A DNA stretch of 46,932 nucleotides from a virus, in the UHGV virus genome UHGV-0283311. One strand, written 5' to 3'. Below, piece by piece: positions 202-34,429 of the stretch. Within the stretch, counting starts at the first letter, position 1. Every line of letters starts with the position of its first letter. The notes below the pieces were generated by a model. It worked only from the letters and a program-made list of their open reading frames with translations. It was not told the origin of the DNA and ran no database searches. Both the position numbers and the translations under genes were made by a program.

Positions 202-807
<606 letters not shown>

Positions 808-1261: not shown

Positions 1262-1288
1262 AGCCTCTTCGGAGGCTCCTTTTTAAAA
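1262..1288 (+). terminator. Rho-independent terminator
   Basis: agcctc-ttcg-gaggct hairpin followed by cctttttaaaa. Confidence 0.7.
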
Positions 1289-1673
1289 GGTCTTTAAGAG
1301 GGTCTTTTAATGAGGTTTGGTATGGTCAGGTATGGTGTGGTGTTGTAAGGTTTGGTGCGGTCAGGTTAGGCTTGGTATGGGTAGTTAATCGGAGCTACAT
1401 AAAAATCCGATTACATCACTTAAGAGTCTTCTAAGAGGGTTTTTAAGTGGTGTTTGGTAGGATAGAGTAAGGTAAGTTAAGGTAGGGTGAGGTCTGGTAT
1501 GGTAAGGTAATGTATGGGTAGTTAGTCTCAGCTACATTAAAATGAGACTCACATCACTTAAGAGTCTTTAAAAAGGGTTTTTAAGTGTTGTGAGGTGATG
1601 TAAGGTCGGGTATGGCTATATCTTGTATGGTTTGGTATGGAAGGATGGCAGTAGCCTTATAAAAAATCTGCCA
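1280..1673 (+). repeat. Tandem array of three repeat units (A 1280-1413, B 1414-1549, C 1550-1673)
   Basis: Each unit has a conserved arm (ttaagagtcttctaagagggtttttaagtg-like), 11-14 in-register GTNNG pentamers, then a hairpin with conserved loop (gctacat[a/t]aaaa or tagccttataaaaaat) and covarying stem. Confidence 0.7.
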
Positions 1674-1691
1674 AATAAGCTATAAAATCTG

Positions 1692-8363: not shown

Positions 8364-9551
8364 TTAAGCTGTTCTCTGCCATACATACAGTACAAAGGAT
8401 GGCTGCTCAATGTTGAAAGCTTGTCCACCACCAACACTATTAGTGTTCCCGCTATGCGTATGCTCAGAAGAAGAAACTGTTACAGTACCATTGTGTGTAT
8501 GTGAACCAATACCAACTGTGTGGCTGTGAGCACCAATACCAACCGTATGGTTGTGGTTACCAGTTGTGTTAGTGGTAACACTGAAAGAGTGGCTGTGAGC
8601 ACCAGCGACTTCACAGACAGCATCTGCTGAGTACCATGATTGGTCATTTCTTGAAGACCAAACCATTGCAGGTCTTTCAGATAAACCACCACCTGATTCA
8701 TAGGTCAATCTGTGGTTATGAGCACCAGCAGCACTTGTTGACCCACTGCCAACATGGTTGTGGTTACCAGTCGTGTTAGTGGTCTTTGTTCCATAGTCAA
8801 AAGAGTTGGTAGTCTTAGTTCCATAATCAAAAGCTGAAATTGACACAGTTGCATTATGAGTGTGACCACCACCACTAAGAGACACGGAGTGTGAATGTTG
8901 AGGCATGTTATTAACTGACAAAGTGACAGTTGAAGCACCAAATACAGAGCCTGCTGGTCTTGTATCAGAGTCATAACCAACCAATGCTCTACCTTTTGAA
9001 ACTAACTCCCAAGTTCCTCCACAAATTAAATACGTAGAAGGGTTTGCAGAGTTCATGGAAAGATGGATAGTACCTACTGGATAAGAAGCCTGAACAGCCT
9101 TGTACAAGTTATTTACTGCTCTTGCTGTAGCATACTTATCTGCATCTTCGTTATAAAGGTTAGATGTTGTCCAGTTCTGAACATTACTCAATCCTACCTG
9201 TGCCTTAGTTGTATTATGTGGGTTGCTCTTGTCCTGAATATGCTGTTGAACAAGATTATTAACCTCTTCTGAAGACATAATCTGTAGATTTGCTCTTGCC
9301 TGAGCTACATTAGTAACGTCTGATAAGTTATTTGCAGCAACTAACTGAAGAGCATTGATAACGTTATCTAAACCAATTTGTGTTTTAGTAACACCATGAG
9401 GGTTATTTCTTAGGCTTGAGTGTGGAGCAAGTAATTGCTCAAGAGTGCATCTCTTATCCTCAATACCTTGTTTAAGATGGAAGATATCACTAAGGTCAAT
9501 TGGTAAGGCTGCTTGAGGCAAGGCACTAATTTGAATTTCACCTACTGCCAT
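8364..9551 (-). CDS. tail fiber protein (second, shares His-rich tip)
   Basis: C-terminal [25 protein letters not shown] and SFDYGTKTTN repeats paralogous to 5930..8317. Confidence 0.7.
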   Translation of the reverse strand: MAVGEIQISALPQAALPIDLSDIFHLKQGIEDKRCTLEQLLAPHSSLRNNPHGVTKTQIGLDNVINALQLVAANNLSDVTNVAQARANLQIMSSEEVNNLVQQHIQDKSNPHNTTKAQVGLSNVQNWTTSNLYNEDADKYATARAVNNLYKAVQASYPVGTIHLSMNSANPSTYLICGGTWELVSKGRALVGYDSDTRPAGSVFGASTVTLSVNNMPQHSHSVSLSGGGHTHNATVSISAFDYGTKTTNSFDYGTKTTNTTGNHNHVGSGSTSAAGAHNHRLTYESGGGLSERPAMVWSSRNDQSWYSADAVCEVAGAHSHSFSVTTNTTGNHNHTVGIGAHSHTVGIGSHTHNGTVTVSSSEHTHSGNTNSVGGGQAFNIEQPSFVLYVWQRTA

Positions 9552-9553
9552 TA

Positions 9554-17572
<8,019 letters not shown>

Positions 17573-18748: not shown

Positions 18749-20101
18749 TTATTCGTAAGCCACTGTACCTTTCAAGTCAACATCCAAGATAGCCCCTGCT
18801 AAGATACCTGCGAAGGTAACGTCTTTCAGGATACGTGCTTTCTTGTCTGCTAAAGCAACTTGAGAGGCTTTAGGAACATTAACTGTGTAAGATGACAGGA
18901 AGTTTCTGTTGACTGCTCTTTGCAGAGAGGTTTCAATGACTTGACGAATACGAGTAATACCAGTATCATCATAAGTAATCTTACCACCCTTCTGGTTAAT
19001 TAGCAAGTCTCTCAGAGAAGTTTTCAGGTCTGATTCTAACCAGTCAACACCACGGATGATATCAATCCATTCCCCACCAGAAGTAATCCCTCTACGAACC
19101 ACTGGAACACCACCATCAAGGTCAATAAAGTTACAGTGACGTGCATCTAAAGCAGACTTCTGAATACTTGTCAGAGGTCTCTGATTAGATGGTTGTAGAG
19201 AAGCTGCTACACCAGTTAGCTGAGCATTACCCCAAGCAATCGAACCTGCGTCATATGGAGCACCATAAGCAATGTATGCCATCTCTGGATAATCTTCTGC
19301 TGCTGTGTGATGCCACAAGCAAACTGTACGAGTGTACATATTCTTAGCAAGCTGTGCTGGAACATCATTTGCACTGGCTAATTCTGTGCCTTGCAGTGCT
19401 GCTACATCTGAGTTAGCCGTAAAGAAGATTTTCTTGCGAGCCTGAATCTCAGAAGCCATTGCTAAGACAAACTGTTGAGTTCTGTCTTCTGCTGCAATGA
19501 AATACCAGTCAGTAGAATAAGCTTCGATAGCTGCCAGAGCAGTTGATGCTGTATCGGCAGTTGTACTTGCAATGTATACAGTCTGTGCTGTGGTTGTTAC
19601 TTTCACAAAGTCATTATCACCAGCTTTGGTAATAATCATTGTGGCAGAGCCATTGCTACCAGTTACATTCACAGAAACCTTATCTTTGATTGTTGGGTCA
19701 GCTTCAATCTGTGTTTTAAACTGTTGCAACACTACCTCAGCAGTGTCTGAGTCTTGTGCTGTGTACTGGTATGGTTGAGAAATTCCACCGCCAGCAGCTA
19801 CAGTAATTGAGTAGTCTGTACTTTCGGTAACGGCATCAGGAATTGATACAGTGTACTGCATAGCACGTCTACCAATATAAAGCTGAGTTACTTTAGGAGT
19901 CTGACTCCAAAGTTGTTTAGCAGCCTTATATGCAGCAGAGTTTTCATCGAAATCTTCAGCAACTTCAGTTAAGGAAGTGTAACCACGGACTCTTTCTTCA
20001 AAGTTATCTGTTGAAGCTAAGAATAGTGGCAAACCAAAACCTTCTCTTGTAGTTCCTGCGGTGTTCAATGTAATATCTACATTAACAATTGGATTCCACA
20101 T
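18749..20101 (-). CDS. tail sheath protein (putative)
   Basis: 450 aa directly upstream of tube gene, as in contractile-tail phages. Confidence 0.5.
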   Translation of the reverse strand: MWNPIVNVDITLNTAGTTREGFGLPLFLASTDNFEERVRGYTSLTEVAEDFDENSAAYKAAKQLWSQTPKVTQLYIGRRAMQYTVSIPDAVTESTDYSITVAAGGGISQPYQYTAQDSDTAEVVLQQFKTQIEADPTIKDKVSVNVTGSNGSATMIITKAGDNDFVKVTTTAQTVYIASTTADTASTALAAIEAYSTDWYFIAAEDRTQQFVLAMASEIQARKKIFFTANSDVAALQGTELASANDVPAQLAKNMYTRTVCLWHHTAAEDYPEMAYIAYGAPYDAGSIAWGNAQLTGVAASLQPSNQRPLTSIQKSALDARHCNFIDLDGGVPVVRRGITSGGEWIDIIRGVDWLESDLKTSLRDLLINQKGGKITYDDTGITRIRQVIETSLQRAVNRNFLSSYTVNVPKASQVALADKKARILKDVTFAGILAGAILDVDLKGTVAYE

Positions 20102-20701
20102 TTATTTTACCCCTTTGGAGTCTACATCTAGATGGATAGTATATTCTGGTGGCTCTTGTCCTTCTTCATAAACTAACTCACCATCAACAATGACACGCTC
20201 AATAATACTTCCACGTTCATCTTTCAGGACTGAGTTTTTTACAAGAGTTACAACAAGAGGTGCAGAATTTTCGAAATCTGTATTGAGATAAGTGTAATCA
20301 TTTGGGATTGCTCCAGTGTCCAGTACTGTAGCTCCTGTTTCTTCAAGGATTAAATCTCTGACTGAACTCATCTCTAATCGTTGTTTAAGCTCAAGCATAA
20401 TACTGTGAGCACCTTTACCATTTACCGTAATTAATACAGGAATCTGAAAAGCAATTCTGTAACAAACTACATCATCTTCAACAAACTTATCAAGAACCCA
20501 ACCATAAGGTGTTGCAGCATCTTGACAATATACGGTGATAAATGGCTGGTCAGGTTTTAAACCTTTGTCATTTGAGTTATCAGAAGGGTAAGCTCTAATT
20601 ACGTTTGGTCTATTATTTTTATCACGAGCTAATCTGTGACCAATAACATCCACTAAGGTTCTAACTAGACCTTTTTCAAGTTCTGCTGTTTCTAACTGCA
20701 T
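20102..20701 (-). CDS. hypothetical head-tail joining protein
   Basis: 199-aa ORF between capsid and sheath genes. Confidence 0.45.
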   Translation of the reverse strand: MQLETAELEKGLVRTLVDVIGHRLARDKNNRPNVIRAYPSDNSNDKGLKPDQPFITVYCQDAATPYGWVLDKFVEDDVVCYRIAFQIPVLITVNGKGAHSIMLELKQRLEMSSVRDLILEETGATVLDTGAIPNDYTYLNTDFENSAPLVVTLVKNSVLKDERGSIIERVIVDGELVYEEGQEPPEYTIHLDVDSKGVK

Positions 20702-34100: not shown

Positions 34101-34177
34101 TGGAGGCGGGTGCAGGAGTCGAACCTGCCGATACCATGCTAATGAGACATGTGAGACGCCCTTTCTCTATACCCGCA
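34101..34177 (-). tRNA. tRNA(CAT): Met, fMet or Ile2
   Basis: loop CTCATTA, D-stem gaga/tctc, 1-72 mismatch; isotype unresolved. Confidence 0.6.
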
Positions 34178-34267
34178 ATTCTTAATGACCAGACCAAATA
34201 TCTTCTTTGTCCGATTAACTTTCAGATGAGTAGATTAAGTTTGCTGTAATTGGTCTTCTGTCAAAAC

Positions 34268-34345
34268 TGGCGTTCCAGAAGGGATTTGAACCCTCAGATA
34301 TCCACTTTGAAAGAGTGGTGACTTTACCGTTTTGTCTACTGGAAC
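34268..34345 (-). tRNA. tRNA-Glu(TTC)
   Basis: perfect acceptor gttccag/ctggaac, perfect anticodon stem ccact/agtgg, loop CTTTCAA. Confidence 0.8.
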
Positions 34346-34352
34346 ATTAATT

Positions 34353-34429
34353 TGGTCTCTGTTGGAGGACTTGAACCTCCGGCCTTACCGCCCCAAACGG
34401 AACGCTCTACCAAGCTGAGCTAAACAGAG
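34353..34429 (-). tRNA. tRNA-Pro(TGG)
   Basis: perfect acceptor and T-stem, D-arm gctc-agcttggta-gagc, loop TTTGGGG. Confidence 0.75.

Follow-up and report, generated by a model that had tools for sequence, protein, structure and literature searches.

Pentamer-repeat units flanking a Cas7-like gene in a Felix O1-like phage are very probably vrRNA genes of a type II VIPR locus

We found that four intergenic units built from GGY-NN pentamers in a Felix O1-like myovirus (Felixounavirus) are very probably the vrRNA genes of a type II VIPR locus. The window, by which we mean the whole stretch of 46,932 nucleotides (46.9 kb) that was analysed, is part of such a phage, and its positions 1–2400 matched felixounavirus records, about 250 in number, with identities of up to 94%. 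The locus is laid out as vrRNA(s), the vipr gene (220–807), the vap1 gene (810–1250), and then three vrRNAs.

VIPR (Viral Interference Programmable Repeat), a CRISPR-related system of RNA-guided DNA silencing that phages encode, was first described in two 2026 preprints, not yet peer reviewed (bioRxiv 10.64898/2026.04.26.720920 and its structural companion 10.64898/2026.04.26.720927), which propose that VIPR predates CRISPR. The system consists of a small ancestral RAMP protein called Vipr, an accessory protein called Vap, and vrRNAs; a vrRNA contains 9 to 16 YNNGG repeats, with a conserved GGY and hypervariable NN, and an invariable tail that is a pseudoknot in the SUSP1 clade (10.64898/2026.04.26.720920). 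The model is Escherichia phage SUSP1, which has one vrRNA upstream and three downstream of vipr-vap1 (10.64898/2026.04.26.720920), and the SUSP1 units are expressed as ~100-nt RNAs that co-purify with Vipr (the two VIPR preprints). The structures show one Vipr protomer per pentamer in a right-handed helical filament, with the GGY flipped out and the NN presented (10.64898/2026.04.26.720927). The NN bases pair with double-stranded DNA in a gapped R-loop/triplex in which every third target base is skipped. This binding needs no PAM and can silence transcription on either strand, an effect that vap1 enhances (the two VIPR preprints). In type II VIPR, vap1 sits downstream of vipr and its product is predicted to bind DNA; expression, co-purification, and repression have been demonstrated for SUSP1 and P. 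fulva only (the two VIPR preprints).

The periodicity of the repeats was evaluated over the whole window. A register scan located GGT-periodic tracts at 30–129, 1284–1398, 1446–1535, and 1589–1643, all on the + strand, and no further GGT-periodic tract elsewhere in the 46.9 kb, and Tandem Repeats Finder gave period-5 and period-15 arrays at 53–111, 1313–1356, and 1467–1517. The identity of bases separated by five positions (lag-5) was 0.55 to 0.67 in the four tracts, compared to 0.24 ± 0.06 in 70-nt windows taken over the whole 46.9 kb, and the 12 most periodic of these 70-nt windows were all inside the repeat units. Reading each tract in a single register, we counted 12 GGY in 14 pentamers, 8 in 13, 6 in 12, and 10 in 14, whereas composition-matched shuffles had means of 1.7 to 2.5 and a maximum of 6, against 6 to 12 in the real tracts. 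Therefore, on the basis of the lag-5 identity, the ranking of periodic windows, and the shuffle comparison, the pentamer repeat is real.

An earlier note on this DNA, made from the letters alone, had described the repeat as GTNNG and quoted a string starting at 1315. The string does begin there, with the GGYNN repeat being read at a shift of one base, and the 5-nt period that the note reported held on recount. The note went too far in calling the register perfect: it is good, although interrupted by deviant pentamers such as TGTAA, GGCTT, GATAG, GTTAA, and TATCT. The three head-to-tail units that it listed are present, at 1283–1673, but it missed a fourth at 1–144, the 5′ part of which lies beyond the start of the window. 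Because of this fourth unit, the genes at 220–1250 have units on both sides.

Each unit is composed of a spacer hairpin, then 9 to 13 GGY-NN pentamers, and then a 35-nt 3′ pseudoknot, and all of these features are on the + strand. The spacing between units is 123 to 137 nt and the periodicity within them is 5 nt, and the four tails are all different. In vrRNA-0, the spacer hairpin (TTAAAAGGTCTTTAAGAGGGTCTTTTAA, 14–41) marks an array that extends upstream of the window. It is followed by a tract of 13 GGYNN pentamers (45–109, placed by the register and periodicity counts) with the NN series TT TA AG AG CC TG CT AA CA TA AA GA AA, and by a tail of type 3 (GG GTGG A TGGTAG TAG CCAC GTTAAAAAT CTACCA, 110–144).

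Beyond vap1, an intrinsic-terminator-like hairpin (1262–1277) with a T run (1262–1285 in all, + strand) precedes the downstream units. The spacer hairpin of vrRNA-A (1283–1310) has a 12-bp stem in the MFE fold; the tract has 13 pentamers, the last being GGTAT (1314–1378), and the tail is of type 1 (GG GTAG T TAATCGGA G CTAC ATAAAAA TCCGATTA, 1379–1413). An identical 24-mer occurs at 18–41 and 1287–1310, with 0 such matches expected by chance. For vrRNA-B, the spacer hairpin of 19 bp (1413–1453; whole-unit folding z = −2.8), whose 3′ strand is the origin of the pseudo-pentamers AGTGG and TGTTT, is followed by 12 pentamers (1456–1515) and a tail of type 2 (GG GTAG T TAGTCTCA G CTAC ATTAAAA TGAGACTC, 1516–1550). 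The last unit, vrRNA-C, has a spacer hairpin at 1548–1594 (whole-unit folding z = −3.8), about 9 pentamers that are the most degenerate of the four tracts (1594–1638), and a tail of type 4 (GG AAGG A TGGCAG TAG CCTT ATAAAAAAT CTGCCA, 1639–1673). A promoter-like site is present at 1692–1720, 3′ of the last unit, and no promoter-like site was found between the units.

The terminator-like hairpin and this promoter-like site were both located where the note had them, and no ORF of at least 30 aa was found within 1251–1758. The note was right that the repeat region is neither a coding repeat nor a promoter. Its count of 11 to 14 pentamers per unit does not hold for unit C, where only about 9 are genuine. 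The conserved arm of about 40 nt that it described ahead of each tract is there but is itself a hairpin, with a stem of 12 to 19 bp in the MFE folds; among relatives the stem is conserved and the loop is variable.

Similarly, the hairpin that had been placed after each tract is structured, but it is actually an H-type pseudoknot, and the coordinates given above for the four tails rest on its covariation. In the 35-nt tail, columns 3–6 pair with 17–20 (helix 1) and columns 8–15 pair with 28–35 across an A-rich loop (helix 2). The variants of helix 1 are GTAG/CTAC, GTGG/CCAC, and AAGG/CCTT, and those of helix 2 are ATCGGA/TCCGAT, AGTCTCA/TGAGACT, TGGTAG/CTACCA, and TGGCAG/CTGCCA. Among 17 distinct tails, 88.7% of the cells of the 12 pairs of the pseudoknot were paired, and 9 of the 12 pairs had changed on both sides: helix 1 was 100% paired with three of its four pairs covarying, and six of the eight pairs of helix 2 covaried. 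When the partner was slid by 1 to 3 columns as a control, pairing fell to 27 to 44%. As judged from these aligned tails, the covariation is a sign of selection on an RNA read from the + strand.

The ORF at 220–807 encodes a 195-aa RAMP (Cas7-like) protein, a predicted repeat binder, that is 97.9% identical to the product of phiSUSP1 NC_028808.2 28477–29061, differing from SUSP1 Vipr at 4 of 195 residues. It has the RAMP/Cas7 fold and is a single-RRM RAMP with a G-loop and a thumb, and it was assigned to PHROG 4652. The residues that the cryo-EM preprint names as contacts of G1, G2, Y3, or the target backbone are the same as in SUSP1 (H17, K33, E71, M72, R138, C173, D177, W178, and R179). At position 175, both the window protein and SUSP1 have V, and the structure preprint names T175 (10.64898/2026.04.26.720927). 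Vipr proteins more than 90% identical to that of SUSP1 are assigned to the ‘SUSP1 VIPR clade’ (the two VIPR preprints), and at 97.9% identity the locus in the window is therefore a member of this clade.

The ORF at 810–1250 encodes the 146-aa VIPR accessory protein Vap1, with one substitution relative to the SUSP1 gene beside vipr (1 of 146 residues). A single-sequence model of Vap1 had a pLDDT of 68, and its best Foldseek matches were winged-helix regulators, only at E > 0.2; a homology search gave only 3 clusters, with almost no homologues outside felixounaviruses. Nearby genes are limited to vipr and vap1, and neither ORF scored above the curated cut-off of any Pfam family.

The proteins bear out two suggestions of the earlier note, namely, that the tract is a periodic protein-bound RNA and that its binder would be among the small proteins encoded at 220–1250. 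In the near-identical SUSP1 system, the 5-nt period corresponds to one protomer per repeat, and the RAMP protein of ORF 220–807 is, by analogy with SUSP1, the predicted binder. The note was also correct that this is not a CRISPR array: the region has no near-identical repeats of 25 to 40 nt with unique spacers and no cas adaptation genes.

The analogy that the note drew with the RNA target of TRAP did not stand. According to this explanation, a ring oligomer would wrap 11 to 14 triplets and control transcription or translation of the neighbouring genes, which is in keeping with a 5-nt period made of a conserved triplet and a 2-nt spacer and with the small genes of unknown function that adjoin the tract. 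However, a TRAP-binding RNA has about 11 (G/U)AG triplets spaced by 2 to 3 nt and is partnered by a TRAP (MtrB) protein; here the conserved triplet is GGY and not (G/U)AG, and the neighbouring protein has the RAMP fold and not that of TRAP, with no Pfam match to TRAP or any other family above the curated cut-off for either ORF. The number of repeats ranges from 9 to 20, and a fixed ring therefore does not fit. The units are stand-alone rather than leaders of a regulated gene, and a copy on a satellite (see below) has its own promoter and terminator. Furthermore, a mere spacer role for the NN bases would not explain the specific code by which they match foreign DNA. We consider a TRAP-like regulatory RNA very improbable.

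We regard it as equally improbable that antisense transcription is ended by Rho loading on the complementary (CCNNA)n strand; the earlier note had said that this strand, if transcribed, would resemble a Rho loading site. A minus-strand transcript would be C-rich and G-poor by construction, but the pseudoknot covaries on the + strand, which is also the strand of the promoter and terminator of the satellite copy, and all of the units are oriented like the flanking genes. In addition, a strict register and a pyrimidine at position 3 are unnecessary for Rho loading, and the complementarity between NN and target is left unexplained.

It is likewise most unlikely that the units act as a DNA-level element, such as origin iterons, a packaging site, or a recombination hot spot. 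Their number differs between close relatives, and they are intergenic and near replication genes such as those for ligase and DHFR, as might be expected of such an element; however, compensatory changes keep the RNA base pairs in the tail, and in SUSP1 small RNAs made from the units co-purify with Vipr. A period of 5 bp would also, by simple reasoning, place successive sites on opposite faces of the duplex.

The reading of the units as vrRNA genes was extended by comparison with related phages. In relatives, the flanking genes are those of DNA ligase, two hypothetical genes, several small genes, and then dihydrofolate reductase. Using the neighbouring protein, we gathered 21 felixounavirus loci, which contained 88 units with 69 distinct tracts of 9 to 20 pentamers each; tract lengths in the window were 13, 13, 12, and about 9 pentamers for vrRNA-0, A, B, and C, respectively. 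Over the 69 tracts, pentamer position 1 was G in 76%, position 2 was G in 98%, and position 3 was T in 90% and C in 10%, with positions 4 and 5 free. The relatives have 1 to 3 units upstream and 0 to 3 downstream of vipr-vap1. The locus that corresponds to SUSP1 (L137) has 1 upstream and 3 downstream, in agreement with the preprint, and the window has at least 1 upstream and 3 downstream.

To look beyond felixounaviruses, IMG/VR was scanned by DNA pattern alone (six in-register GGTs), and 120 loci were retrieved. Many unrelated viral contigs had multiple degenerate GGYNN tracts in intergenic DNA, and about three quarters of the pattern matches were plain microsatellites, for example (GGTTA)n, (GGGTC)n, and (GGTCT)n, that are unrelated to VIPR. 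In a profile search based on the Vipr alignment, 29 of the 120 loci had a gene for a Vipr homologue directly adjoining the tract, and these 29 were the loci with degenerate, not microsatellite, tracts. In locus L048, the tract was followed by the same pseudoknot topology. A search of Rfam gave only tRNAs at the gathering score and, within 1–1800, only chance-level matches (E of at least 0.6). The Felix O1 genome paper gives other repeats and these tracts are absent from it, and a literature search for ‘GGTNN’ returned primer sequences only.

When the locus was compared by BLAST with complete E. coli genomes, unannotated chromosomal DNA was matched in 144 genomes through the tract and tail of unit 0. 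The matched element is about 11 kb long and is inserted in a DUF72 gene, yecE, or beside tonB, at tonB-yciI. It carries genes for a serine recombinase and for a baseplate and a tape-measure protein, together with small hypothetical genes, and it fits the description of the published satellite; related elements are present in 568 of 5,426 genomes. The satellite carries vipr-less vrRNAs with the phage tail (tail type 3, that of vrRNA-0, is also found on satellite-borne vrRNAs), and the copy on the satellite comes with a + strand promoter and terminator of its own.

The targeting code was evaluated by scoring 13 satellite variants against the 69 guides, with consecutive NN separated by 0, 1, 2, or 3 free bases, and a guide was counted when at least 80% of its NN bases matched. 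On the 13 satellite loci, 51 of the 69 felixounavirus guides reached this cut-off with a 1-nt skip and 23 reached at least 90%, compared to 2 of 69 with a 0-nt skip, 1 with a 2-nt skip, and 3 with a 3-nt skip. With the 1-nt skip retained and the order of the NN shuffled, 1 of 69 guides reached the cut-off. The variable NN bases are thus what carries the information of the tract, in that they match satellite DNA under the 1-nt-skip code, and its RNA is therefore a guide. Annotated genes contained 40 of the 51 matched targets, on either strand, and in 28 of these 40 the skipped base was codon position 3. The final pentamer before the tail, usually GGTAT, had an NN match to the targets of only 0.37, and it therefore behaves like part of the handle and not of the guide.

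If the tracts acted mainly as two-tier G-quadruplexes, or as a Shine–Dalgarno-like AGGU sponge, to stabilise transcripts or titrate ribosomes, the coded NN matches and the RAMP partner would be left unexplained, as would the covariation of the tail and the pyrimidine that is invariant at position 3. GG runs separated by 3-nt loops do occur 9 to 13 times per tract, and AGGT or GAGGT can be read in many of the pentamers, but the cryo-EM structures show the protein holding the guanines in the syn conformation (10.64898/2026.04.26.720927), and we give this explanation next to no weight.

Several other candidates were rejected, none of which accounts at once for the pyrimidine, the covarying tail, and the NN matches. 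Mutagenesis of (GGTAA)n from A to N as in DGRs was dropped because the tracts are non-coding and a reverse transcriptase is lacking, a tRNA CCA-end sponge because no U bias is seen in the base ahead of GG, and a CsrA sponge because GGA motifs are absent. Arrays of primase sites, pause sites (sigma-dependent or consensus), and telomere-like repeats were also set aside.

Returning to the units as vrRNA genes, we looked for the targets of the four window guides. A first scan on a single satellite (L141) gave no target for any of them, and the matches came with more satellite variants; in a scan for self-targets, no window guide matched the window itself above background. On the satellite targets, all four window guides scored above every one of 100 shuffles.

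The predicted target of vrRNA-A is at 10861–10899 of satellite L145, with 24 of 24 bases matched over the first 12 NN, and lies in a gene for a hypothetical 184-aa protein. Weaker matches were found at the orthologous site of the same gene in L150 (8386–8424) and L142 (9524–9562), where the differences were mostly at the skipped bases. For vrRNA-0, the predicted target is at 10494–10532 of L153 (23 of 26 NN bases) and at 10892–10930 of L146 (22 of 26), in the leader of a satellite HTH/DnaD_N-like gene, where it follows a promoter-like sequence and precedes the gene start; its score was reached by 0 of 100 shuffles, and the L146 match by 0 of 500.

The predicted target of vrRNA-B is inside the HTH/DnaD_N-like gene, at 9535–9576 of L152 and 8988–9029 of L147. 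The match is partial (20 of 22 core NN bases) and its site is rich in A; the segment score was attained by 0 of 100 shuffles. That of vrRNA-C, at the start of the satellite serine-recombinase gene (L145, 2006–2038), is also partial, with 16 of 16 bases over only 8 consecutive NN; 0 of 100 shuffles reached its segment score, and it is the weakest of the four predictions. For the three targets in coding sequence, those of vrRNA-A, B, and C, arithmetic on the coordinates places the skipped base at the wobble position. The scan covered 13 satellite loci, and therefore better or different targets may exist in the wider pangenome.

These results suggest the following model. The array would be co-transcribed, given that no promoter-like site separates the units, and its RNA would be cut at the spacer hairpins into units. 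Expression of these four units as ~100-nt RNAs, their processing, and their binding by Vipr would be as in SUSP1, from which they are carried over by analogy. During infection, the four guides may then repress a satellite that would otherwise parasitise the phage. The sites predicted to be silenced are the replication/regulator gene and its leader, the gene for the 184-aa protein, and the integrase gene, and among satellite variants the guides may be aimed at the integrase and at either of two alternative modules for replication/regulation.

The guides differ greatly between phages that are otherwise closely related. The DNA identity of vipr plus vap1 was 96.4% among 18 felixounaviruses, and 91% at the third codon positions of vipr, whereas the NN bases at an equal array slot were 30 to 35% identical between phages, which is about random. 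The tract of vrRNA-A is identical to one in a related phage (L133). Because of this low NN identity beside 96% identity of vipr plus vap1, and because 69 of the 88 tracts are distinct, the alignments indicate that guide replacement is far faster than point mutation allows. We know of no adaptation gene for VIPR. That gapped guides are written or exchanged by a dedicated mechanism seems to us doubtful, and ordinary recombination with selection is an alternative explanation of the turnover. Such a mechanism, if there is one, could take up vrRNA cassettes from satellites, where vrRNAs with the phage tail occur in the absence of vipr, or could work by pentamer-level recombination seeded by the GGY repeats.

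Since this is a known system in an experimentally characterised clade, the locus itself is nothing new. VIPR is, however, a newly described form of RNA-guided DNA recognition, in which a Cas7-like protein of about 20 kDa reads a gapped guide encoded in pentamers, and a whole VIPR locus is present here in an ordinary Felix O1-type coliphage, where elsewhere the annotation is ‘hypothetical protein’ and bare intergenic DNA. The analysis also provides an independent computational replication of three claims of the preprints, namely, the 1-nt-skip code, the wobble-skip bias, and the convergence of targets on a satellite, and the shared target is an E. coli satellite bearing tape-measure and baseplate genes. 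Of practical use would be the annotation of such loci, the forecasting of conflicts between phages and satellites, and the picking of therapeutic felixounaviruses.

Among known systems, type III toxin–antitoxin loci offer a formal likeness. The ToxI RNA is made of tandem non-coding units with pseudoknots, is found in phage-conflict loci, and is cut to unit-length RNAs, and the window units are similarly tandem non-coding pseudoknot RNAs in a phage-conflict locus. ToxI differs in that its identical 36-nt repeats inhibit an adjacent endoribonuclease toxin, whereas the window locus has no toxin gene and its units differ among themselves and do not match ToxI-type repeats. The TRAP/trp leader system of Bacillus, (G/U)AG-NN × 11, also has a single-stranded RNA with a conserved triplet, a 2-nt spacer, and one subunit per repeat. 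TRAP, however, is a β-wheel forming an 11-mer ring, and Vipr is a RAMP protein forming an open helical filament of variable length; in VIPR, moreover, the ‘spacers’ carry sequence information, and the outcome is DNA targeting and not attenuation.

The crRNA–Cas7 backbones of Class 1 CRISPR systems (Cascade, Csm, and Cmr) resemble VIPR in having one protomer per fixed step of RNA, a thumb that flips out bases at regular intervals, and a conserved, structured handle that caps the variable guide. The step in Class 1 CRISPR is 6 nt with 1 flipped, whereas in VIPR it is 5 nt with 3 hidden and 2 read, leaving a gap at every third target base. VIPR has neither a repeat-spacer array nor cas1/cas2 adaptation genes, and it is encoded by a phage and aimed at a satellite. 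The closest likeness is to SUSP1 VIPR, with which the window locus shares the GGY/NN tracts, the 3′ pseudoknot tail, the vrRNAs on both sides of vipr-vap1, the 1-nt-skip code, and the satellite family that is targeted. It differs from SUSP1 VIPR in that its host phage is a Felixounavirus and not SUSP1, and in the NN sequences of its guides, apart from tracts that are common to a few relatives.

The guide tracts of the VIPR locus were found to be effectively randomised between the phages of the 18 felixounavirus loci (L123-L140), and the vipr and vap1 genes, which encode the RAMP protein Vipr and an accessory protein, showed 96% DNA identity between the same phages. The loci also differed in how many vrRNA (guide RNA) units they had, with 1-3 upstream and 0-3 downstream of the vipr-vap1 pair. 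Some tract variants are distinguished solely by an extra or missing copy of a repeated pentamer (for example, GGTCA), a pattern that suggests slippage.

The pentamers of a tract did not match their targets equally, as evaluated with the 51 guides that had satellite hits. The target match was 0.92-0.98 for internal pentamers, 0.75 for the penultimate pentamer, and only 0.37 for the last pentamer before the tail, which in the window is located at 105-109, 1374-1378, 1511-1515 and 1634-1638 and is mostly GGTAT. Therefore, the last pentamer seems to belong to the handle rather than to the guide.

One vrRNA apiece was also present in two E. coli satellites, at 19914-20130 in locus L141 and at approximately 11650-11760 in locus L144; satellite-borne vrRNAs are mentioned in the VIPR preprint. 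The satellite vrRNA has its own sigma-70-like promoter (TTGACG-17-TATAAT) and its own intrinsic terminator, and its tail is identical to the type 3 pseudoknot tail of the phage. No vipr gene is annotated within the satellite element, and therefore the element presumably borrows the Vipr of the helper phage.

In every vrRNA unit of the window, the conserved arm that separates one vrRNA from the next folds into a spacer hairpin of 12-19 bp (14-41, 1283-1310, 1413-1453 and 1548-1594). Across relatives the stem is kept and the loop varies, with an insertion of about 20 nt in the loop of some of them. This hairpin may be a processing signal; no discussion of its role was found in the accessible text of the VIPR preprints. 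Downstream of the array, a 19-nt inverted repeat at 1673-1719 (arms AAATAAGCTATAAAATCTG and CAGGTGTTATAGCTTATTT, 89% complementarity) flanks on both sides the −35 TTGACA of a promoter-like site (1692-1720), which stands before an ORF at 1765-2148 (127 aa, PHROG 4332) with a signal-peptide-like N terminus. This inverted repeat could serve as an operator or, alternatively, form a hairpin in RNA.

Elsewhere in the window, a tRNA cluster on the minus strand (29275-34429) contains 25 genes by ARAGORN, 24 of which reached the Rfam threshold; such clusters are typical of Felix O1-like phages.

Residue 175 of Vipr (window 742-744) is V in the window protein and in L137, the contig of the model phage SUSP1; the structure preprint (bioRxiv 10.64898/2026.04.26.720927) names T175 as a member of the pyrimidine pocket. 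A vipr gene with 99.5% identity to that of the window is present at 91679-92263 of GenBank GU169904.1 ("Staphylococcus phage SA1"). Such a gene is out of place in a Staphylococcus phage and suggests a chimeric or contaminated record.

Among the IMG/VR loci fetched by DNA pattern (L003-L122), 29 unrelated viral contigs have a Vipr homologue next to degenerate GGYNN tracts. Some of the arrays (L016, L047, L053 and L064) have interspersed GGCAR pentamers, and some tracts (L034 and L098) have (GGTAA)n at their end and then a run of T. These loci may represent other VIPR types.
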